From the IMG/VR virus record IMGVR_UViG_3300011865_000035: a stretch of 64,000 nt of DNA; one strand, given 5' to 3'. Made by a program: the position numbers and the translations under genes. Position 1 is the stretch's first letter; each line of letters starts with the position of its first letter. This stretch comes from a virus (lineage: Duplodnaviria; Heunggongvirae; Uroviricota; Caudoviricetes). Of this stretch, positions 3,371 to 55,362 are shown piece after piece. The notes under the pieces are model-generated. The model was given only the letters and a program-made list of their open reading frames with translations. It had not been told where the DNA came from and searched no databases.

Positions 3371-4531
3371 ATGGAAATAAAAATGATAAATTTTGATTTA
3401 ATCAAAAAAATCCCCAAAATATTATCAGAAATTGAAGTTAAAGATAATGAAAAATCTATAGAAATGATAGAAGCATTAGATAACGAGGATTTTTATAAAG
3501 CAATAGAATTACTAAAATGTAATGCTGAACCGAATATTGCCGTGTATGATGGAAGCAGAGAAGAATTTATTACAGTAATACAGGTGTTATTTGATAAGTT
3601 ATATGAATCTGAATCAAAAGTATCATTTTTTAAAGATTATATAGATTTAAATCCTGATGAAGAAGAATTATCTCTCGCGGAAAATAAGCATTTGAAAGCA
3701 CCTTATGAAGAAATTAGTTTATTTATAAAAGAATGGAAAAAATACGGTGGTTCTCTAAATGCTAATCTTATAAAAATTAAAAAACATGAATATAATGAAA
3801 TAAAAGATAACGAAATTAGAACAATGAGTGATTCCATTTTTAATTCATTATTTATTTGTACTGAAAAACAAAACTGGAATAATTATTATAGTTCTGCTTA
3901 TCTTGATGATCTTACCCGAATATTACTTTCATTGTCAGAAATAATGAATGAAAAATTAAAACCAGTGTTTTTGGAGAAACCAGTATTAAGTCTTGTATTA
4001 AAAGAATGTTGGCCGTTTTACACTACATTAGATTTTTTAGAAATTTTAAATCAAGAACATGATGAGTTTTTAATAAATAAAAGAAAAGGTGAAACAGTGT
4101 TACACACTTTAGTTGATTTAAGGAAGGAAAATAATTATTGTTTAGTTAAATATAGTAATCCAGATTATTTTAAATTTATAAATGAAACTATAGAAAATAT
4201 TAATAAAATATATCCTCCTGAATTATTATTAATTAAAAATAAAGAAGGTCTTTTACCTGTAGAATATTTTGCTAAAAAAGAGTCATGGAGCCAATTTATA
4301 ATTATGGATTCTTTAATGAAAAAAAATAATTATAAATATGAATTAACACAAGAAATAATAGATTCATTCCCAGAAGATTTAACCAAATTAGGAATGATTA
4401 GAGAAAATTTAACTGAAGAAAAATTAAAAGAAATGTTTGCTGAAATTTATACGCTCAAAGAGAAATCAGTATTAAATAAAGAAATTAGCGAAGATAAAGA
4501 AGTTAAAATTCAAAAAAACAATAGATTATAA
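3371..4531 (+). CDS. hypothetical protein with C-terminal KNNRL tail
   Basis: A 386-aa ORF with no recognisable domain. It ends ...QKNNRL. Confidence 0.5.
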   Translation: MEIKMINFDLIKKIPKILSEIEVKDNEKSIEMIEALDNEDFYKAIELLKCNAEPNIAVYDGSREEFITVIQVLFDKLYESESKVSFFKDYIDLNPDEEELSLAENKHLKAPYEEISLFIKEWKKYGGSLNANLIKIKKHEYNEIKDNEIRTMSDSIFNSLFICTEKQNWNNYYSSAYLDDLTRILLSLSEIMNEKLKPVFLEKPVLSLVLKECWPFYTTLDFLEILNQEHDEFLINKRKGETVLHTLVDLRKENNYCLVKYSNPDYFKFINETIENINKIYPPELLLIKNKEGLLPVEYFAKKESWSQFIIMDSLMKKNNYKYELTQEIIDSFPEDLTKLGMIRENLTEEKLKEMFAEIYTLKEKSVLNKEISEDKEVKIQKNNRL

Positions 4532-4605
4532 TAAAGATGTATTGACATTATATAAATAGTTTATTAATTGATGTTAAAGGAAATATTAAATGAGGTAAAC
4601 TATTT

Positions 4606-4785
4606 ATGTCAGAACAAGAAATAAAAACAGTAATATGTAGTCGTTGTGGAACAACAAAGGCAAAAAAAGTACAAGCTTCTATAGGAAGATCTGAAAATGA
4701 AGTTGTACCAGGAAACTTTCCGGTATTTATTTGTATGACATGTGGTGGAATAGTAAATGTTCCGGTCACAGCTAAAAAAGAATAA
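4606..4785 (+). CDS. small zinc-ribbon protein (59 aa, CxxC...CxxC)
   Basis: Not in the ORF track because it is under 60 aa. It has the SD GAGGT 8 nt upstream and two CxxC pairs (CSRCG...CMTCGG), and it is followed by a perfect 12-bp hairpin terminator. Confidence 0.45.
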   Translation: MSEQEIKTVICSRCGTTKAKKVQASIGRSENEVVPGNFPVFICMTCGGIVNVPVTAKKE

Positions 4786-4790
4786 TAAAA

Positions 4791-4829
4791 AAAGCTTTAT
4801 ATCTTGGAAATATAAAGCTTTAATTTTTT
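4791..4829. terminator. bidirectional rho-independent terminator
   Basis: aaagctttatat-cttggaa-atataaagcttt hairpin flanked by A-run and T-run, between convergent genes. Confidence 0.7.
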
Positions 4830-5658
4830 AAAGTCTTTGTTTATGTCCAGAAGGAATAGATTGAATAGTACAATCTAAAAATAATTTTTGTATTTCTGTT
4901 TGTTGTTCAACAGTAAAATTATTAATGTTTATTTTTTCATTAAATTGATTAAAGAATTTTTCATTATTATTATAACTATGTTTTGCTATCCATAAAAATT
5001 TTTCTAAATCCTCAATTAAACGAGGTATCTTAAGGTTATGTGGAGAACTATGAGTTTGTAAAGTATCTTTCATAGTTTGCAAATAAGAGTTATAATATAA
5101 TTCAAAATTATGTTTTAATTCCGTTGAATCACTTTTGAATATATCTAATATTATTTTTTGTTTATCTGAACTATTTTTTAATTCATTTACATTTATTTCT
5201 TTCATAATGTAATGGAAATTACTTTTATTAACGAATAATCTTTCTGATAAAACGGTTGAAAGTTCTGTGTTTGTTAATTCTGGGAATAATTGATTATAGA
5301 AATCAATGTTATTAAAGATAAATTTAAAATGTTGCAAATAAATTGCTTCTTTTAATTGTTCTGTGTTTTCATTTTTAATATTAGAAGTAAACATTATTTT
5401 ACGACAAATATCAACATGATCAGAATTTTCTTCTCCTATCTTAATAGGAATATTTTTAAAAAATTCAAAAAAATCAGAAACAAGATAACCTTTTTTATTG
5501 ATAATGGAGTTTATTTCTTGTTGAGTATAAGAATAAATATTTTCAGAATGAACTAAAGAAAGTGTGGTGAAAATCAAGTCCTTGTTAACCGAAGAATTAT
5601 CTTCAGGGAAATTTAAAAGTAAATGTAGAAATTCTTCTTTAGAAAGAGCTAAAGTCAT
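4828..5658 (-). CDS. hypothetical protein with C-terminal KQRL tail
   Basis: A 276-aa ORF that ends ...GHKQRL. Confidence 0.5.
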   Translation of the reverse strand: MTLALSKEEFLHLLLNFPEDNSSVNKDLIFTTLSLVHSENIYSYTQQEINSIINKKGYLVSDFFEFFKNIPIKIGEENSDHVDICRKIMFTSNIKNENTEQLKEAIYLQHFKFIFNNIDFYNQLFPELTNTELSTVLSERLFVNKSNFHYIMKEINVNELKNSSDKQKIILDIFKSDSTELKHNFELYYNSYLQTMKDTLQTHSSPHNLKIPRLIEDLEKFLWIAKHSYNNNEKFFNQFNEKININNFTVEQQTEIQKLFLDCTIQSIPSGHKQRL

Positions 5659-5862
5659 ATTATCAATCCATATTTGTTTGTATTGAGTTATTATATAATA
5701 AGAAGGAGAATTAATCTAATTTTAATAATAACTATAGATATATTTATGTATATGTTTGTTTTTTTTAAAGATAAATTAACAATAAATCCTTGATAGATGA
5801 TGATTTATGGTGTATATACTATTTAAGCTCATTTAATACCACTTGATGTTTTTGGAGGATCT

Positions 5863-6069
5863 ATGACAAGTATTTTACGTTTTTTAGGGCTTGCTCCTGG
5901 TAAAGATGAAGAAGAAATGGTTAGGAAATTAAAGAATACCTATTCATCGTTAAAAGTGGTCGGTCGCGGGACTATAACAGTTTCTGCTGATGAAGTTATT
6001 AATAATCCTGAGTTTAAAGAGTTGTACATACGAGCTAGTAAAATTGTAGAACGCAGTAAAAATCAATAA
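5863..6069 (+). CDS. small hypothetical protein (68 aa)
   Basis: SD GGAGG 6 nt upstream. No recognisable domain. Confidence 0.35.
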   Translation: MTSILRFLGLAPGKDEEEMVRKLKNTYSSLKVVGRGTITVSADEVINNPEFKELYIRASKIVERSKNQ

Positions 6070-6309
6070 TTGTACATGTTTGTTTTTTCTTATACCTGAA
6101 AAATGCCTAATATGGTCTTTATTCAATGATCCTTGTAGTGTTTTTTATTTATGCCTCTGGCTCTCTGAGCATACCATATGGAACTTAAAAGTTTGATAAA
6201 TATTTACTAAATCTCCCCATAAAGTCTCGTGATTTAATGCTGGGAGTATAACAATACCTTCGAAAATAGATTTAACTCTTATAAACGAAGGTATTATAAA
6301 AAACAATAA

Positions 6310-7434
6310 TTAAATTAAATCAGAAATACTAATATTAACAACTTCATTAGTTTCCCTATTTAACAATTCAACAATTTTAGTTTCTCTTGTCGTTTTGTTA
6401 ATAATAATCCTTTTATGTATACAAATTAACTCACTGTCATAGAATTTTTTACCAGCTTTGATTTTACGATCATCTAATAAAACTTTTTTACCAGCTTGTT
6501 TTAATTGTTGATATAAACTATCTGCAATATCTTTATCTGTTGCATAATCGATAACAGAGATAATGTAATCAAAAGTGTTGAATTTTGCAGTTCCTTTAAA
6601 TCCTTTTTCATCTCTGTTTTGCTCTAATAATGCCATAATAAGACGAGAAACACCTATGCCAAAACAACCCATTAAAACATGATTCTTTTGATTATCTTTT
6701 AAATCAAAGTTTCTGCTGTAACGATCTCCCAAATTAAAGATATGCCCAATTTCAAGATAATTATCGCCATCTGAACCTTTGTCTTCTCCAAAAGAGCTTT
6801 TACAACGAAATTCTTCTGAAAAGTTTCCACCCATTTCACCCACATCAGACGATACTATTTCAAATTGAATACCTAAACGTGTGAAAATTTTAATATAGGC
6901 AGACCTTACTTCATTATAAGTATTAATTAATTCTTCATCACTATGAGAAAAGCAATAAGCATCAGACATTAAAAATTCTTTTCCTCTGATTAAACCGCCT
7001 TTAGCTCTCATTTCATCACGATATTTATTACCAATTTGATATACTTTTATATCCATGCGAGAATTATTATAGTATTTTTTCATAATTGAAGTGATTGCTT
7101 CTTCACATGTCGCTCCTAAAACAAACTCTCTGTTTTTTCTGTTTTTAAGTTTGAATAATTCTGCTCCATATGAGTCATATCTGTCAGAAGTTTTCCATAA
7201 ATCTGCATCCTGAATTAAACTTAATCTCATTTGAGAAAAACCAATATTATCCAATTCTTCCTGGATAACTTGTTCTACTCTTTTTTCAAGTAAATAGCCT
7301 AATGATAAAGTTGAAAACACACCAGCACTGTCCTGAGTATAGAATCCAGCTTTTTGAACTAAATCAACAAGATCTAATTGAGAGTTTTCTTTTACGAAAG
7401 AATTGCTATTAAAAAACATATTTGAAAATTTCAT
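6310..7434 (-). CDS. proS: prolyl-tRNA synthetase, minimal form lacking INS editing domain
   Basis: Class II motif 2 'YQIGNKYRDEMRAKGGLIRGKEFLMSDAYCF' matches E. coli '[25 protein letters not shown]'. Motif 3 is 'GCFGIGVSRLIMALLEQ'. The anticodon-binding domain is present. At 374 aa the ~180-aa INS insertion is absent. Confidence 0.85.
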   Translation of the reverse strand: MKFSNMFFNSNSFVKENSQLDLVDLVQKAGFYTQDSAGVFSTLSLGYLLEKRVEQVIQEELDNIGFSQMRLSLIQDADLWKTSDRYDSYGAELFKLKNRKNREFVLGATCEEAITSIMKKYYNNSRMDIKVYQIGNKYRDEMRAKGGLIRGKEFLMSDAYCFSHSDEELINTYNEVRSAYIKIFTRLGIQFEIVSSDVGEMGGNFSEEFRCKSSFGEDKGSDGDNYLEIGHIFNLGDRYSRNFDLKDNQKNHVLMGCFGIGVSRLIMALLEQNRDEKGFKGTAKFNTFDYIISVIDYATDKDIADSLYQQLKQAGKKVLLDDRKIKAGKKFYDSELICIHKRIIINKTTRETKIVELLNRETNEVVNISISDLI

Positions 7435-7473
7435 ATTGTATTCCTTATTAAGTTTCTGTTTATTAAATTTTAG

Positions 7474-7616
7474 ATAATAAAAAAACGCCTACATGAGGCG
7501 TTTAAAAGAGAAACTCAATAATATCTGAGCAATAGTCTTCTGACGCCTTATGTAGGCGTTTGTGGTCGTATACCTTTTAAGAAAACTTGATTATTGCACA
7601 TGATATTTTCCTTCAT
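7474..7616 (-). promoter_or_regulatory. candidate transcription attenuator of proS: leader peptide, hairpin and terminator
   Basis: Minus-strand leader ORF 7601..7548 (MCNNQVFLKGIRPQTPT, SD AAGGA, alternative start 7616). Its two Pro codons and stop lie inside hairpin 7542-7560. Then a 40-nt spacer and terminator hairpin 7484-7502 plus U7, 40 nt before the proS ATG. Confidence 0.3.
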
Positions 7617-7737
7617 TATTTTTCGTTGTTATTCCATATTAATTATCAAAGTAAAAGAAGTCAAGTTTTATTTTATGAATTGCTGAAATCTTATTATTTT
7701 ATTATAATAAAACATATACATTAAGTGAGAGCAAAGA

Positions 7738-8796
7738 ATGGATAGTAAATATAGTTTTGAGAATAAAAGGATTTATGCTGAAAGAGAAGCATTATTGCCA
7801 GAAACAGATGTTAATTATGCTATAAGAAAAATATTGTTGATTGAAAAAATTTTTCAAAATGAAGAAGTTTCTTCAATAAGACCTACTTTTTCTTTATTTT
7901 TTGATGCATCAAATAATATCTTTTTTGAGCAAGATTTTTTAATATCCTGGAAATATAATTCTAAAATATCAAATAGTTTGCACCATGATATAAATAATAT
8001 ATTAGAGGAAATTAAAATATTAGATGAAGCTTTTGCTAATTTTTATATATTAAACAACTATTACAATTATGAAAATGATGCTTATATTAAAGAAAAAATA
8101 GAAAGAGAAATGATTGAAAAAATGAATAATTTGTTGGTTAATTCCACAATTCATCGATATAACAGGTTCGATTTATATACAAAAGATGAATCCTTTATAG
8201 ATTTATTTAATGAGAATAACCGAAAATATTTTAAAGAATATATAGAGACATTAAGAGAAAATAAAAATTATATATCACCCAAAATAGAAATTTATGGAGA
8301 AGAATTTGCATTAATTCCTGTTGATTTTAATGATTTTCAGGTCACAGATATCGGGAGAATGAAATATTATAAAAAACAATTTTATTTTGAAGAAATAAAA
8401 GAATTTATTATTGAATCATTTGATAATCTATATAACAATGCTGTTCAAAATTCTAGTTCTGTAGAGAAAATAAATATGACTATTGATAGTAAAAACCAGA
8501 ATATATCCTCGGTGTATATTGATAATGAAAATCATTTTTCTTTATTAAATTACAGGACAAAAATATTACCCTGTCTTTCTGATACTAAAGAATTCTCAAT
8601 AGAGTTAGAAAATTTAAAAGAATCATTGGAAAAAAACCTTACTGATATTTTTGAATTTACTAAAATAAAAAATCATGACACAAATATATCTCAAATAGCT
8701 AATGAAATAGAAATATTAATAAATAAAAAGGTATTAAATAATTTATTGTCAGGAAATAGTGAAATTAATAATAAAATTCATAAAAATAGATTTTAA
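7738..8796 (+). CDS. hypothetical protein (ends HKNRF)
   Basis: A 352-aa ORF with no recognisable domain. Confidence 0.5.
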   Translation: MDSKYSFENKRIYAEREALLPETDVNYAIRKILLIEKIFQNEEVSSIRPTFSLFFDASNNIFFEQDFLISWKYNSKISNSLHHDINNILEEIKILDEAFANFYILNNYYNYENDAYIKEKIEREMIEKMNNLLVNSTIHRYNRFDLYTKDESFIDLFNENNRKYFKEYIETLRENKNYISPKIEIYGEEFALIPVDFNDFQVTDIGRMKYYKKQFYFEEIKEFIIESFDNLYNNAVQNSSSVEKINMTIDSKNQNISSVYIDNENHFSLLNYRTKILPCLSDTKEFSIELENLKESLEKNLTDIFEFTKIKNHDTNISQIANEIEILINKKVLNNLLSGNSEINNKIHKNRF

Positions 8797-8852
8797 TGTT
8801 CAACTCTTATTTAAAATAGAATATAATATATAAATACAATTAGGAGAAAACT

Positions 8853-44293: not shown

Positions 44294-45283
44294 ATGTCTC
44301 AGTTAAAATATTTAATTTTAAAAGCAAAAGCAAAAATAACCAAAGACGGTGGAGATGAGTGGTTGTTACACATGTATAAAAAAAACATGGATTTAATTAG
44401 CAAAGTTAAAGCTTCCGGAATTCCTTTATCTCAATCTCCTGAAATTTTACCTTTATTATTTTCAAAAGATTCACCTTTAGAACTTTTAAAATTATTTGTT
44501 TCCAGTGGAATAGATATAAATATAAAAGATAAAAATGGTAATTCTTTATTAATGCAACAACCATATAATGTGAATAGTACAAAATATTTGATTAGTAAAG
44601 GTATAGATATTAATGCCGTTAATAATAATGGAGAGAATGCTTTTTTTATGGCAGATTTAGATAATAAAAAATTATTGTTAGAGCATGGTGTTAATAAGAA
44701 TCAAATAAATAAAAAAGGCGAAAATGCATTATTTAAATCTTTGGGTAATTCAGATTATATAAAATTTTTATTAGAAAATGGAGTAAGATCTGATATTTTA
44801 AATAATAATGGTGATTCAATCATTTCATTAAATCCTCAAGTAATAGATATGTTAACAAAAGAACAGCTTAATAAGATTGTAAAATTAAAACCAGGAAATG
44901 AAATATTTAATGATGTTGTTTTTACATTGATAGCCAATTCCATAAAAGGTAGTGCATTGAATGATATCCAAACAATAAAGAAAAAAATGGAAATAGATAA
45001 TACCGATTGGTTTATGATTAATAGTAAAGGAAATAATTTGTATAGTATATGCTTTACAAAAGATATTTTAAGTTTTTTAAATCATAAAGGTGTATCATTA
45101 AATATAAAAAATAAAGATAATGAATCTATGTTTGATTTAATTATGAAAAGACACAATAGTGATCCATTATTTATAGAAAAGTTAAAAGAAATTAAAGTGA
45201 CTCATGATTTAAGAGAACTTAATGAAATATTACCTTTTGATGTAAATATTGCAAAAGATGCAAAACAGAAAAAAAGATTATAA
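44294..45283 (+). CDS. ankyrin-repeat protein, C-terminal KKRL
   Basis: 329 aa with at least 5 ANK units ('KNGNSLLMQQ..LISKGIDINAVNNNGENAFFMA..LLEHGVNKNQINKKGENALFKS..'). Confidence 0.7.
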   Translation: MSQLKYLILKAKAKITKDGGDEWLLHMYKKNMDLISKVKASGIPLSQSPEILPLLFSKDSPLELLKLFVSSGIDINIKDKNGNSLLMQQPYNVNSTKYLISKGIDINAVNNNGENAFFMADLDNKKLLLEHGVNKNQINKKGENALFKSLGNSDYIKFLLENGVRSDILNNNGDSIISLNPQVIDMLTKEQLNKIVKLKPGNEIFNDVVFTLIANSIKGSALNDIQTIKKKMEIDNTDWFMINSKGNNLYSICFTKDILSFLNHKGVSLNIKNKDNESMFDLIMKRHNSDPLFIEKLKEIKVTHDLRELNEILPFDVNIAKDAKQKKRL

Positions 45284-50800: not shown

Positions 50801-51976
50801 TTGACTATAAGGAACAAATTTCAAAGAATCAATTTGTTCCTTTTATTTTTAATTAGGAGAAATATGTTTTTTTTATATACGACAACACTCTGCATATACT
50901 TATTATTTAGAACCGTACTGTTTTTATCAATACCAATTTATGCAAAAATAATTTTAGGTATCTTTATTATACTTGGAACAAACTTTCATTTTATATCAAA
51001 GCAAATAAGTGGAATGCTTGTTGCTGATTATCCAAAATTAATATTATATTCATGGGAGTTTTTATTTGCTTTTTGTGTAGTTTTATTTTTAATAACATTA
51101 TCATTAGATATTGTTAGAGTAATTTCACTGTTACCATTTTTAAAATCAATAAATGTATTGTTAATTTCTAATAACACAACATTTATCTCACTTGGTCTTT
51201 CCTTTATTTTAGCAATTTATGGATTATATCAAGGAAACAGGGTCCCAGATATTAAGGCTCAAAATATTTATATTGAAAATTGGCCTAAAGAATTGAATGG
51301 ATTTAAGGTTATTCAATTAACAGATCTACATGTTAGTAACTTATTAACTAAAAAATGGTTAAATAAGGTTGTGAATAAATCAAATGAAGAAAATCCTGAT
51401 TTAATAGTAATCACTGGTGATTTAACAGATGGATATCCAGAGAATTATAAAAATAATTTATTACCATTAAAGAACTTAAAAGCGAAATATGGAGTTTTTG
51501 GTTCACAAGGTAATCATGAATATTATTTTGATTTTAACGGTTGGAATAAAGAATATAAATTAAATAATGTGGAAATGTTAAATAATAGTCATGTATCAAT
51601 TGATAATAAATTTATTTTAGCTGGAGTTACTGATCCTGTTGCCAAACAATTCGGTCTTGAACCACCTGATATAGAAAAAGCATTATTAAATACTAATAAA
51701 GATTTACCTATAATCTTATTAGATCACAGACCAACAAATGTAGAAATAAATGAAAAAAATGGAGTTGATTTGCAATTATCAGGTCATACTCATGGTGGCA
51801 TGATGCCTTTATTAGCCCAAGTCGTAAAAAAAATGAATAAAGGATTTAATTCTGGATATTATCAAATAGGTAATTTGCAGTTGTATCTTAGTAATGGGAC
51901 TGGAATATGGAATGGTTTTCCTATAAGATTGGGATATAATTCAGAAATAACATTAATAAAAATTTACAGGAGATAA
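50801..51976 (+). CDS. membrane-anchored calcineurin-like metallophosphoesterase
   Basis: 4-5 N-terminal TM helices. The metallophosphoesterase motifs are 'IQLTDLHVS' (DxH), 'VITGDLTDG' (GDxxD), 'GNHEY' and 'GHTHGG'. Confidence 0.7.
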   Translation: MTIRNKFQRINLFLLFLIRRNMFFLYTTTLCIYLLFRTVLFLSIPIYAKIILGIFIILGTNFHFISKQISGMLVADYPKLILYSWEFLFAFCVVLFLITLSLDIVRVISLLPFLKSINVLLISNNTTFISLGLSFILAIYGLYQGNRVPDIKAQNIYIENWPKELNGFKVIQLTDLHVSNLLTKKWLNKVVNKSNEENPDLIVITGDLTDGYPENYKNNLLPLKNLKAKYGVFGSQGNHEYYFDFNGWNKEYKLNNVEMLNNSHVSIDNKFILAGVTDPVAKQFGLEPPDIEKALLNTNKDLPIILLDHRPTNVEINEKNGVDLQLSGHTHGGMMPLLAQVVKKMNKGFNSGYYQIGNLQLYLSNGTGIWNGFPIRLGYNSEITLIKIYRR

Positions 51977-51978
51977 AA

Positions 51979-52003
51979 TAAAGCCTCTATGAGGCTTTAT
52001 TAT
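51979..52003. terminator. bidirectional rho-independent terminator
   Basis: aaagcctc-tat-gaggcttt followed by attatt. Confidence 0.6.
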
Positions 52004-52343
52004 TGTTGTGTTCTGGTATTAATGATAAAAGACCAATTAACATAGCTTCTATCTTAGGATCATTTTGATAATGAATATAAACTTCTTCTAATTTAGGTTG
52101 CCATGCAGTCAGTAAATCTTTTAGAGCATAGGTACTTCTCAACAACGAAACAGCCTCTCTTAAGGATAAATCAACTAAATTAGCATTGATTAACATTTTA
52201 TTTAAAGAATGGTAATCTTTATTCATAATATAAACAACACTTTTTTTCATAATTAATCTGGACTTTTCTCTTTCGTTCATTAATTCATTCCTTTGGTTAT
52301 TATTTTTATATTCTATCATATTTTTTAATCTCTTAAATAACAA
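51987..52343 (-). CDS. hypothetical protein
   Basis: 118 aa. It overlaps the upstream gene by 11 nt. Confidence 0.4.
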   Translation of the reverse strand: MLFKRLKNMIEYKNNNQRNELMNEREKSRLIMKKSVVYIMNKDYHSLNKMLINANLVDLSLREAVSLLRSTYALKDLLTAWQPKLEEVYIHYQNDPKIEAMLIGLLSLIPEHNNNKAS

Positions 52344-53001: not shown

Positions 53002-53571
53002 ATGAAATTATTTAAAATAAGATCTAATACAAAAGACTATGCAAGTTTTTTACAAAAAAATTATACAACTTACTACGAAAGCATAAAATACAAAGCATTA
53101 CATGAACAAAAATGGCAACCATTTGATATTGAAAAATATATAATTCCAGAGTTCGAAATATTGACAAGTGATACAGGGAAAAGAAATTTCCAATTTGATT
53201 TTTCTTCTCACCCTTCACCATTTTATATTTTTAGTGAAAATGCAGTTGAAGCTTTAAAAGACATACTTGAACCAAGGGGGAAATTTCTACCTATAAAGAC
53301 TCCAAGTAAAAGAAAAAAATTTATTGGTTATTATCCCACTAATGCAATTAAGGGATTGGTTGATTTGGAAAAATCAGGTATTTATGATTTAAGTTTAAAT
53401 TTTGAGACTGATAATTTAAAATTTAGAGAAAACATTGCAATTGATGAATATATGTTTTGTATTTCAGAAAGTAGAAATTGTATTCTTTTTACTGAAAAAT
53501 TCAAAGAAAGAGTTGAAGAAACAAAACTAAACAGTTTTTCTTTTTTATCTGTAGATGTGGATTTTGTTTAA
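53002..53571 (+). CDS. paralog A of tandem 190-aa family (immunity-protein-like)
   Basis: The shared core is 'KA(L/M)HEQKW(Q/K)PF...PEFE...SDTGK(R/K)NFQ(F/H)D...SPF(Y/F)(I/V)FSENA(V/I)EALKDILEPRG(K/Q)FLPI(K/I)TPSKRKKFIGYYPTN'. There is no signal peptide. Confidence 0.55.
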   Translation: MKLFKIRSNTKDYASFLQKNYTTYYESIKYKALHEQKWQPFDIEKYIIPEFEILTSDTGKRNFQFDFSSHPSPFYIFSENAVEALKDILEPRGKFLPIKTPSKRKKFIGYYPTNAIKGLVDLEKSGIYDLSLNFETDNLKFRENIAIDEYMFCISESRNCILFTEKFKERVEETKLNSFSFLSVDVDFV

Positions 53572-53584
53572 AGAGAAATAAACA

Positions 53585-54178
53585 ATGAGAAAAGTAATGC
53601 TATATACAATACAAGGAAATACAAAAGATTATTCGGATTTTTTGGAAATAAATTATTGTAATGTGGAAAAGTGCATTCAAGTAAAAGCAATGCACGAACA
53701 AAATTGGAAACCTTTTGATATGGAAAAGTTTGTAATTCCAGAATTCGAATTGGCTAGGAGTGATACAGGTAAAAAAAATTTCCAGCATGATATTTCTACT
53801 CATGAAAGTCCATTTTATATCTTTAGCAAAAATGCAGTTGAAGCTTTAAAAGATATACTCGAACCACGAGGACAATTCTTACCTATAAAAACTCCAAGTA
53901 AAAGAAAAAAATTTATAGGTTATTATCCAACAAATCCATTAATTAATGCAATAGATATAGAAAAATCTGGAATGAAAGATTATAACTACAAAGTATTAGG
54001 TATAAAAAAAGAGAGTCTTCATTTTAAGAAAGGGATAGTATTAGATGAATATCTTTTCAGTTTATCAGAAGACAGGCGTTATGTTTTTGTTACTGAAAAA
54101 TTCAGACAACGTGTGGAAGAAGCTGAATTAAAAGGATTTGATTTTGAAGGTAGAGACTTTATAGTTACGGTGGATTAA
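53585..54178 (+). CDS. paralog B of tandem family
   Basis: About 85% identical to 54769..55362. Confidence 0.55.
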   Translation: MRKVMLYTIQGNTKDYSDFLEINYCNVEKCIQVKAMHEQNWKPFDMEKFVIPEFELARSDTGKKNFQHDISTHESPFYIFSKNAVEALKDILEPRGQFLPIKTPSKRKKFIGYYPTNPLINAIDIEKSGMKDYNYKVLGIKKESLHFKKGIVLDEYLFSLSEDRRYVFVTEKFRQRVEEAELKGFDFEGRDFIVTVD

Positions 54179-54760
54179 ATGAAAATAAAATTATTCGAAT
54201 TAGAAAGTAATAGTGGGAATTATTCTAGTTTTTTGCAAACCAACTGGAATAAATATTATGAAACCATACAATATAAAGCCATGCATGAACAAAAATGGAA
54301 ACCCTTTAATTTAGATACTTATATTACTCCAGAGTTTGAAGTAGAAAGTAGTGATACAGGAAAAAAAAACTTTCAACATGATATATCTTCAAATGCTAGT
54401 CCTTTTTTTGTTTTCAGTGAAAATGCAATTGAAGCTTTAAAAGATATACTTGAACCTAGAGGACAATTTTTACCAATAATAACTCCAAGTAAAAGAAAAA
54501 AATTTATTGGTTATTATCCAACTAATGTTATTAATGGATTAGTTGATTTACAAAAATCAGGTAATGATGATTTAGATAGACCATTTACAACAAAAAATTT
54601 ATTCTTTAAAAAAGAAGTTGTATTTGATGATTATCTTTTTTGTATTGGCGAAAGTAGAGGTTGTGTATTAATTACTGAAAAATTTAAAAAGAGAGTTGAA
54701 GATGCTGGTTTAAAAGGTTTTGATTTTGTTTATTCTAAAATTACTGCAAAAATAGAATGA
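54179..54760 (+). CDS. paralog A' of tandem family
   Basis: Closest to 53002..53571. Its start abuts the upstream stop. Confidence 0.55.
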   Translation: MKIKLFELESNSGNYSSFLQTNWNKYYETIQYKAMHEQKWKPFNLDTYITPEFEVESSDTGKKNFQHDISSNASPFFVFSENAIEALKDILEPRGQFLPIITPSKRKKFIGYYPTNVINGLVDLQKSGNDDLDRPFTTKNLFFKKEVVFDDYLFCIGESRGCVLITEKFKKRVEDAGLKGFDFVYSKITAKIE

Positions 54761-54768
54761 AATAAATA

Positions 54769-55362
54769 ATGAAAAAAGTAAAACTATATAGAATAGAAGC
54801 AAATACAAAAGATTATTCTGGTTTTCTGGAAATTAATTATGGTAACGTAAAAAAAAGTATACAAGTAAAAGCTATGCATGAACAAAATTGGAAGCCTTTT
54901 AATTTTAATAGATATGTTGTACCTGAATTTGAACTTATAAGTAGCGATACAGGAAAAAAGAACTTTCAGCATGATATTTCTACTGATGTAAGCCCATTTT
55001 ATATATTTAGTGAATATGCAGTTGAAGCTTTACAAGATATTCTTGAACCAAGAGGACAATTTTTACTGATAAAGACTCCGAGCAAAAGAAAAAAATTCAT
55101 AGGTTATTATCCAACAAACCCATTAATTAATGCAGTTGATATAGAAAAATCAGGTATGAAAAATTATGACTATAAGACTATGGGCATAAAAAGGGATGAT
55201 ATTCACTTTAAAAAAGGAACAATTTTAGATGACTATCTTTTTAGTTTATCAGAAGACAGGCGTTATGTTTTTATTACTGAAAAATTCAGGCAACGTGTAG
55301 AAGAAGCTGGATTAAAAGGGTTTGATTTTGAAGGTAGAGACTTTATAGTTACGGTGGATTAG
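54769..55362 (+). CDS. paralog B' of tandem family
   Basis: About 85% identical to 53585..54178, including the identical C-terminus 'GFDFEGRDFIVTVD'. Confidence 0.55.
   Translation: MKKVKLYRIEANTKDYSGFLEINYGNVKKSIQVKAMHEQNWKPFNFNRYVVPEFELISSDTGKKNFQHDISTDVSPFYIFSEYAVEALQDILEPRGQFLLIKTPSKRKKFIGYYPTNPLINAVDIEKSGMKNYDYKTMGIKRDDIHFKKGTILDDYLFSLSEDRRYVFITEKFRQRVEEAGLKGFDFEGRDFIVTVD

Follow-up and report, generated by a model that had tools for sequence, protein, structure and literature searches.

The Escherichia coli pheST leader (pheM), which has five Phe codons, is an example of an aminoacyl-tRNA synthetase gene controlled by a leader-peptide attenuator. Runs of cognate codons are the mark of textbook attenuators, although such a run is a usual feature and not a strict requirement (trpL has two cognate codons). 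Among synthetase genes, pheST has an established attenuator of the classical type, and trpS and leuS of Streptomyces are predicted to have one (PMC1262725). For proline, Pro codons in ilvL relieve attenuation when tRNAPro is undercharged (PMC8384417) and those of mgtP do likewise (PMC3641672), while expression of E. coli proS, the prolyl-tRNA synthetase (ProRS) gene, was reported to be unchanged under tRNAPro undercharging (PMC8384417) and proS in Firmicutes is under T-box control (Rfam context, PMC2836559). Our literature searches turned up no account of a leader attenuator with Pro codons for proS. Here we analyze the leader of a proS gene in IMG/VR record IMGVR_UViG_3300011865_000035, a stretch of 64,000 nucleotides (nt) that we refer to as the window, and conclude from comparison and simulation that it probably (probability of roughly 0.8) contains a ribosome-mediated leader-peptide transcription attenuator that tunes a short ProRS to the supply of Pro-tRNAPro.

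The proposed element shares its general layout with pheST and with Streptomyces trpS and leuS: a short open reading frame (ORF) with cognate codons, RNA arms that can pair as 1:2, 2:3 and 3:4, and a terminator just before the synthetase gene. It departs from them in its amino acid, proline, and its enzyme, a mini-ProRS without the INS editing domain, in having one effective control codon in place of a run, and in an arm 1 that in the window also pairs with arm 4 to give a nested long hairpin on ribosome-free RNA; there is no sequence or Rfam relationship. As in trpL and hisL, segment 1 contains the control codon or begins just 3′ of it, the class A stop codon (class A being the window's group of leaders) would let a terminating ribosome cover segment 2, and termination would be the default that a stalled ribosome converts to read-through. 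Unlike trpL and hisL, the element precedes a tRNA synthetase gene and not a biosynthetic operon, has 1:4 pairing as a second route, and is built from two hairpins of which one is an inverted copy of the other. With Salmonella mgtL and mgtP and E. coli ilvL it has in common that leader Pro codons would couple Pro-tRNAPro, or the speed of Pro decoding, to transcription (PMC3641672, PMC8384417), but those leaders control genes for Mg2+ transport, virulence and branched-chain amino acids and their structures are unrelated. The proposed outcome, in which low tRNAPro charging leads to antitermination and more ProRS, is that of the Firmicutes proS T-box; a T-box, however, binds uncharged tRNA directly and without translation, whereas here a ∼90-nt core overlaps an ORF.

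Results

Architecture of the proS leader

The leader lies in a 303-nt intergenic stretch between proS on the minus strand (6310-7434) and a plus-strand gene (7738-8796). An initial annotation of this region, made from the sequence alone, had described two near-identical GC-rich hairpins, and sequence reading, pattern counts and an inverted-repeat comparison all bear this out. On the plus strand the hairpins read AACGCCT-ACATG-AGGCGTT (7484-7502) and GACGCCT-TATGT-AGGCGTT (7542-7560), with full spans of 7483-7503 and 7542-7561, and they form a 19-nt inverted repeat of one another at 95% complementarity. The pattern ACGCCTN5AGGCGT has exactly two matches in the window compared with 0.14 expected, and three when up to two mismatches are allowed, a count reached by none of 100 shuffles. 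The third match (51981-51997, AAGCCTCTATGAGGCTT, two mismatches) has A-rich and T-rich runs on either side and sits between the convergent ORFs 50801-51976 (plus strand) and 51987-52343 (minus strand). We rejected it as a third copy of the leader hairpin, as it looks like an unrelated, ordinary bidirectional terminator.

On the minus strand, to which all leader features refer unless stated otherwise, the hairpin closer to proS had been called a terminator ∼40 nt before the proS ATG. A terminator scan agrees: an eight-pair stem followed by TTTTTTT is the sole site in 6000-9000, and a gap of 44 nt separates its U-run from the proS ATG (7434-7432). The 17-codon ORF with its AAGGA-7-ATG Shine–Dalgarno (SD) arrangement was also found exactly as described. 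An in-frame ATG at 7616-7614, five codons 5′ of the leader start, would give a 22-residue peptide (MKENIM...); the SD position and the orthologues favour the ATG at 7601 as the start. The AAGGAAAA-N-ATG arrangement at the window's SD recurs in four comparative loci (L081, L082, L096 and L175).

Two claims about this ORF and its hairpins needed revision. Both Pro codons and the stop codon had been placed in the 5′ arm of the proximal hairpin (hairpin 1), which holds for the second Pro codon (Pro2) and fails for the other two: the first Pro codon (Pro1) lies just 5′ of arm 1, one nt before AAACGCCU and four before its ACGCCU core, and the stop codon is in the loop of hairpin 1, touching the 3′ arm. 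The four hairpin arms had been proposed to pair either as 1:2 and 3:4 or as 2:3; all three pairings were found, along with a further pairing, 1:4, that had been missed. A sigma-70-like promoter upstream of the leader ORF would start transcription near 7629. The features are collected in Table 1.

Table 1. Coordinates of the proS gene and of the features of its leader in the window
Feature	Position	Strand	Sequence or description	Basis
proS, regulated gene	6310-7434	minus	374-aa bacterial-type ProRS without INS editing domain	Pfam, TIGR00409, structure alignment
Sigma-70-like promoter	7664-7636	minus	-35 TTGACT 7664-7659, 17-nt spacer, -10 TAATAT 7641-7636	promoter scan
SD of leader ORF	7613-7609	minus	AAGGA, 7 nt 5′ of ATG 7601	sequence read
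Leader ORF	7601-7548	minus	17 codons + stop, MCNNQVFLKGIRPQTPT	sequence read, orthologue comparison
Arg codon	7568-7566	minus	CGA	
Pro1 codon	7565-7563	minus	CCA	
Pro2 codon	7556-7554	minus	CCU	
Stop codon	7550-7548	minus	UAA	
Arm 1	7561-7554 (feature 7550-7561)	minus	AAACGCCU; partner arm 2 or arm 4	folding, covariation, swap test
Arm 1 extension for 1:4 pairing	within 7550-7561	minus	AAACGCCUACAU	
Arm 2	7548-7543	minus	AGGCGU; partner arm 1 (hairpin 1) or arm 3 (antiterminator)	
Spacer	7541-7504	minus	between arms 2 and 3	
Antiterminator (2:3) extension	7541-7536 with 7509-7504	minus	AGAAGA with UCUUUU	minimum-free-energy fold, energies
Mid hairpin in spacer	7530-7526 / 7517-7513	minus	GCUCA / UGAGU	fold; conserved, both-side changes at two pairs
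Arm 3	7503-7496	minus	AAACGCCU; terminator 5′ arm, or arm 2 partner	
Arm 4	7490-7483 (feature 7479-7490)	minus	AGGCGUUU; overlaps U7 tract 7485-7479	
Intrinsic terminator	7503-7483, then U7	minus	arm 3 + loop CAUGU (7495-7491) + arm 4	terminator scan
SD of proS	7446-7442	minus	AAGGA	sequence read
Conserved attenuator core	7571-7479	minus	covariance-model match, 87 bits, E = 5e-24	

Conservation of the leader across relatives

Comparative loci (L numbers) were gathered from Logan, ENA and JGI contigs by exact-protein look-up and by scans of genome and metagenome collections; L173 and L174, from close strains, have leaders identical to the window's and so add nothing to the comparison. The same leader is present upstream of proS in related genomes, its ORF and hairpins being kept among proteins of at least 45% identity. 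Every fetched relative of the short ProRS at or above this identity has a promoter-like site, a short ORF with a Pro codon at arm 1 and a hairpin with a U-run before proS, with the exceptions of L116, where no U-run follows the last hairpin, L001, which is cut by the contig end, and L117, which lacks an in-frame ATG. The leaders are kept from ∼24% GC, as in the window's genome, to leader regions of ∼65% GC in Burkholderiaceae, despite differing flanking genes. Among 40 distinct orthologous leaders, 38 have an equivalent of the leader ORF, the two without it being L001 and L117. In L117 (383-485) the motif itself is intact (QRPLWPE...) in a frame without an in-frame ATG (ATG ACA TAA ATT ...), for which a non-canonical start, an error in sequencing or decay of the leader are possible explanations.

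The open frames span 15-31 codons, and the N-termini and lengths of the peptides vary freely. Their ends do not. Class A peptides finish in P-x-x-P-x before the stop (RPQTPT, RPQSPV, RPQPPI, RPIPPI, RPLPPI, RPLMPI, RPPKPR, RPQLPK, RPLLPS, RPLLPT and FPRSPM), with a P-x-P form in L101 and L102 (RPLPLMLG. before the stop), and the class A stop codon always falls one codon past Pro2, immediately before arm 2. Burkholderia-type peptides have the form M.F.R.L.QRPP[VM]PA[MV]AAGV... and are 31 residues long, and class C peptides contain LPASPP, LPIFSP, PAPSLP, APTPCTPP or KRPGKPP, the hairpin having two to four Pro codons. A Pro codon with a variable third base (CCA, CCU, CCC) stands at a fixed place 5′ of arm 1 in all leaders of class A and of the Burkholderia type. 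The Arg codon before it is CGA in almost all leaders and is replaced in L176 (UUC) and L119 (CGC). Since L176 has F-P in place of R-P, the constant residue is Pro and not Arg.

Transcription from upstream of the hairpins appears well supported by a conserved promoter, TTGAC[AT]-17/18-TAnnnT, which lies 35-66 nt 5′ of the leader ATG in most AT-rich orthologous loci. In L107, L111 and L119 the leader ORF begins 6-9 nt past the -10 box, and the mRNAs that encode these leader peptides are probably themselves leaderless. A U-run follows hairpin 1 as well in L105, L106, L107, L109, L111 and L119, so that one terminator-like hairpin succeeds another, and these distant or class C leaders may be wired somewhat differently.

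Specificity for short proS genes

A covariance model (R1) was built on 11 leaders with the nested structure described below and searched against the window and 176 loci, about 1.07 Mb in all. It matches 44 loci, each immediately upstream of a short proS, and nothing elsewhere in this search space. In the window it finds a single locus, at 87 bits; the mirror image that the palindrome creates on the plus strand reaches no more than 34.6 bits. No match was obtained upstream of ∼110 ProRS genes of more distant kinds, among them those of Patescibacteria, Chlamydiae and Ruminococcaceae.

These searches decide on an alternative that the initial annotation itself had raised, namely that the hairpins are a palindromic repeat like those of the REP (repetitive extragenic palindromic) or MITE (miniature inverted-repeat transposable element) type, inserted by chance between proS and its neighbour. 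That the hairpins are near-identical inverted copies in AT-rich DNA is what such an insertion would look like. However, the window has just the two copies, both within the leader, the element occurs once per locus beside otherwise unrelated neighbours, and the arm sequences co-vary within each genome. Since R1 is found solely upstream of short proS in the ∼1.07 Mb searched, the repeat-element explanation is removed, and we give it practically no weight.

Known families of regulatory RNA were also considered. Rfam gave no family, either at E values up to 10 on 7200-7900 or at gathering score on the window and 10 related loci, with chance-level matches only. A T-box riboswitch was rejected, as the leader has no specifier loop, no T-box sequence and no RF00230 match. 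We likewise rejected a tRNA-mimic operator of the thrS type: the loops, ACAUA and CAUGU, have no NGG anticodon, vary between orthologues and covary with each other.

Covariation and partner swapping among the four arms

When the class A leaders were all aligned with MAFFT, the variable spacer of the more distant ones was misplaced, and for this reason a closer seed alignment, a covariance-model alignment and an alignment-free swap test were used instead. In the seed alignment the nested fold (1:4 and 2:3) has 81.8% of its cells paired, compared with 31-56% when partners are slid, and 18 cells have changes on both sides (0/500 shuffles). Bases that form the ‘loop’ of hairpin 1 covary with those that form the ‘loop’ of the terminator, which makes sense only for 1:4 pairing. 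For instance, arms 1 and 4 read CGCCC/GGGCG in L099 and CGCCU/AGGCG in L100. In an independent set of 13 leaders outside the seed (Burkholderia type, L090, L092, L115, L117 and L119), 85% of cells are paired versus 35-45% with slid partners, 19 of 27 pairs show changes on both sides (0/500 shuffles), and the 2:3 helix has double changes at 8 of its 10 pairs.

In the swap test, duplex energies between anchored windows were compared for arms of the same genome and arms permuted among genomes. All four proposed pairings were stronger within a genome: -12.5 versus -10.4 kcal/mol for 1:2, -11.4 versus -9.1 kcal/mol for 3:4, -15.8 versus -11.3 kcal/mol for 2:3 and -14.3 versus -9.6 kcal/mol for 1:4, with 0/5000 permutations as low in each case. 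For the non-functional control combinations 1:3 and 2:4, the same-genome and permuted energies differed by <1 kcal/mol.

Since the nested long hairpin carries the strongest covariation and needs no ribosome, it could be argued that the structured leader acts without translation and that the ORF is incidental. The RNA might then be an operator for ProRS or another protein, bind tRNA or a ligand directly, or yield a functional small terminated RNA, the short terminated transcript being constitutive; the orthologue without an in-frame ATG (L117) would fit as well. Nevertheless, the SD, the ATG, the 15-31-codon frame and the Pro codon are all kept across divergent sequences and GC contents, where a 16-codon open frame at 24% GC has a chance of ∼0.2 per lineage by a base-composition estimate. 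Pro1 changes at its third base only, and the fixed class A stop likewise speaks against an untranslated RNA. The hairpin loops, moreover, vary among orthologues, carry no NGG anticodon like that of tRNAPro and change together, and the Rfam searches gave no T-box or other family. We therefore consider an untranslated leader very unlikely.

Folding energies and the control codon

The minus-strand leader of the window has a minimum free energy of -39.3 kcal/mol (z = -6.2, with 0/200 shuffles as low). Free of ribosomes, it folds into one nested long hairpin made of 1:4, 2:3, the extension and the mid hairpin, in which AAACGCCUACAU pairs with AUGUAGGCGUUU (1:4), AGGCGU with ACGCCU (2:3) and AGAAGA with UCUUUU. 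This nested conformer reaches -36.6 kcal/mol, while the terminated conformer (1:2, mid hairpin and 3:4) reaches -21.7 kcal/mol. With arm 1 masked the order of the alternatives changes, as 2:3 with the extension and the mid hairpin (-17.0 to -19.2 kcal/mol) is then favoured over 3:4 with the mid hairpin (-13.3 kcal/mol). Taken alone, 2:3 with its extension contributes -9.9 kcal/mol (-17.0 with the mid hairpin) and the 3:4 helix -9.2 kcal/mol. Masking of arm 2, which corresponds to a ribosome with Pro2 or the stop codon in its A site, allows 3:4 to form as a local terminator. Arm 4 is paired beside the U-tract whenever arm 1 is free or arm 2 is covered; to be single-stranded it needs arm 1 hidden and arm 2 accessible. 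Folding and comparing the conformers in this way had been suggested with the initial annotation, and the energies fit the proposed logic of 1:2/3:4 versus 2:3.

To locate the control codon, we simulated a ribosome at each codon in turn by hiding the RNA up to 9, 12 or 14 nt past the start of the codon in the A site. The probability of 3:4 pairing is a misleading read-out, being 0 for free RNA, on which the nested fold with 1:4 prevails, and we used the probability that arm 4 is paired with anything, in 18 class A leaders. In 18/18 of them and with all three footprints, arm 4 became unpaired only in a window of two to three codons centred on Pro1; it stayed paired for stalls further upstream, at Pro2 or at the stop codon, and without a ribosome. 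Pro1 is unpaired in every conformer, and RNA structure therefore does not explain its conservation. The model thus predicts Pro1 as the only effective control codon, with a stall at Pro2 or the stop leading to termination. Pro2 may be a by-product of reading the GCCU stem core in frame. Pro accounts for 2.2% of the codons in the window. The near-invariant CGA before Pro1 is possibly a slow-decoding sensitiser; CGA is rare in this genome, at 6% of Arg codons, and besides that of the leader a single CGA-CCN pair occurs in 18,598 codons.

A leader with these properties could also be a general translation-coupling or stress sensor that responds to any slowing near arm 1, without being specific for Pro-tRNAPro. 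Possible triggers include the supply of Arg-tRNA(ICG) at the rare CGA, the status of EF-P at the PP motifs of orthologues, and defects in m1G37 or other tRNA modifications. The simulated read-through window does span Arg, Pro1 and the next codons, Pro1 follows a CGA in the R/x-P leaders with two exceptions, several orthologues have PP, and the Pro-codon leaders mgtL and mgtP report conditions beyond proline shortage (PMC3641672). On the other hand, the gene under control is a ProRS in every case, Pro1 is universal where CGA can be replaced, and the window leader has no PP; non-consecutive prolines (RPAP) caused no intrinsic pausing in a HisL reporter (PMC8129111). Overall, we regard a sensor of this general kind as unlikely.

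The short ProRS and its family

The gene downstream of the leader was recognized through the Pfam domains tRNA-synt_2b and HGTP_anticodon and through TIGR00409, at 350 bits and above the cut-off. The protein retains the class II core and the anticodon-binding domain and misses the entire INS editing domain, aligning with residues 33-229 and 415-569 of the solved ProRS 8w8j. Its family consists of proteins of ∼370-385 residues on uncultured AT-rich metagenomic contigs of up to 1.3-1.9 Mb, and also includes a paralogue in Burkholderia, Paraburkholderia and Cupriavidus, where the source names it ‘aminoacyl-tRNA ligase-related protein’. We infer that the Burkholderiaceae genomes with a short ProRS also carry a canonical proS, making the short one a second copy. 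Genes for an M20 peptidase, a RidA-like protein and a LysR protein surround the Paraburkholderia copy and give no hint on function. No description of this family was found in the literature.

A scan of GTDB genomes with the ProRS alignment returned no close relative, the best being a Burkholderia paralogue at 48% identity. In collections of plasmids and phages the short ProRS had no close homologue either, and the top matches (<40% identity) were canonical proS genes. There is no evidence in these collections for a plasmid-borne cassette.

Downstream of proS, the window has a stretch of 32-36% GC (5659-6309), compared with about 20%, without a long ORF. A 68-residue ORF within it (5863-6069, plus strand) is called as a gene on a Logan contig. 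The stretch has no Rfam match and no similarity to other proS loci. In L088, seven tandem tRNA genes of ∼81 nt each (4302-5172) lie just downstream of the short proS.

Other features of the window

A Pfam search of about 44 window ORFs describes a genome of 24% GC in which orphan genes and genes for ankyrin-repeat proteins are numerous. Ankyrin-repeat proteins are encoded at 21154-22026 (minus strand) and 44294-45283 (plus strand) among mostly orphan genes, which in a genome of this GC content suggests a host-associated bacterium. Tandem arrays of paralogous ORFs occur at 24206-28037 (eight, 140-165 residues) and 53002-55362 (four, ∼190 residues), and one member of each array had no match in Pfam. 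A 297-residue protein (22566-23459, plus strand) has only the catalytic domain of class I Glu/Gln-tRNA synthetases, like GluQRS/YadB; its relatives are all metagenomic proteins.

Discussion

The sequence of events that we propose is as follows. Transcription would begin at the promoter, and the 17-codon ORF would be translated during the passage of RNA polymerase through the four arms. By default, transcription would terminate at U7. In the default states, arm 1 is free of ribosomes, or a ribosome at Pro2 or the stop codon covers arm 2, and arm 4 would pair either locally (3:4) or with arm 1 in the nested fold (1:4 and 2:3). With ample charged tRNAPro, the ribosome would reach Pro2 or the stop codon or would already have left, and transcription would end at the U-tract. 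When charged tRNAPro is scarce, the ribosome would stall with the CCA of Pro1 in its A site. The stalled footprint would hide arm 1 and spare arm 2, allowing arm 2 and its extension to capture arm 3. Arm 4 would then be single-stranded and the polymerase would proceed into proS. The 1:4 pairing would thus be a second route to termination, and the antiterminator would be insufficient unless arm 1 is physically occluded.

The Pro-codon attenuator first proposed for this ProRS gene is supported by the orthologues, by the specificity for a single locus, by the promoter, and by the energies and masking simulations. The locus has an SD and an ORF near a promoter, cognate codons, a terminator and an antiterminator that excludes it, and in class A also the geometry of the stall. 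We infer from these features that the leader ORF would be translated and that the element would respond to proline or to the charging of tRNAPro.

Several observations weigh against this reading. The model has a single control codon where a classical attenuator would have a run of consecutive cognate codons: in the window leader the two Pro codons stand apart, with no PP, and PP is found in some orthologues only (RPPVP, RPPKP, RPIPP). The model gives no role to Pro2, despite its conservation. Local pairing is high for hairpins 1:2 and 3:4, at 80-88% of cells, but these show little covariation of their own. The 13 non-seed leaders were aligned by fitting them to the structure of the model, and 8 of the 13 are close relatives of one another. 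Finally, simulations of the GC-rich Burkholderia-type leaders and of class C leaders (L105, L107, L109) gave a partial effect or none, and for that reason we claim the detailed geometry for class A alone.

A broader interpretation is more speculative, and taken as a whole we hold it to be doubtful. Here the mini-ProRS and its Pro-codon leader might form a self-contained, horizontally transferred ‘emergency ProRS’ cassette that stays silent until charging of Pro-tRNAPro fails, the trigger being perhaps inhibition of ProRS by a natural compound, exposure to a proline analogue or faulty modification of tRNAPro. The cassette would serve as the backup copy in Burkholderiaceae and would also be found in uncultured, AT-rich, ankyrin-rich and probably host-associated bacteria. 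Its switch might consist of a single control codon sensitised by the rare CGA, acting on inter-complementary arms that pair as 1:2, 3:4, 2:3 and 1:4.

As a regulatory device, the leader offers a compact (∼90 nt) Pro-specific sensor with apparently a single control codon, and a clean system in which one stalled ribosome would choose between the nested and local terminator folds. The culturable Paraburkholderia and Cupriavidus strains make the attenuator directly testable. For the enzyme family, the leader is conserved from 24% GC genomes to leaders of ∼65% GC and is tied to a distinct ProRS lacking the editing domain. Since the leader travels with the short ProRS, it marks this enzyme as one that would be induced by failure of tRNAPro charging, and such induction is a clue to the function of the uncharacterised short ProRS family.

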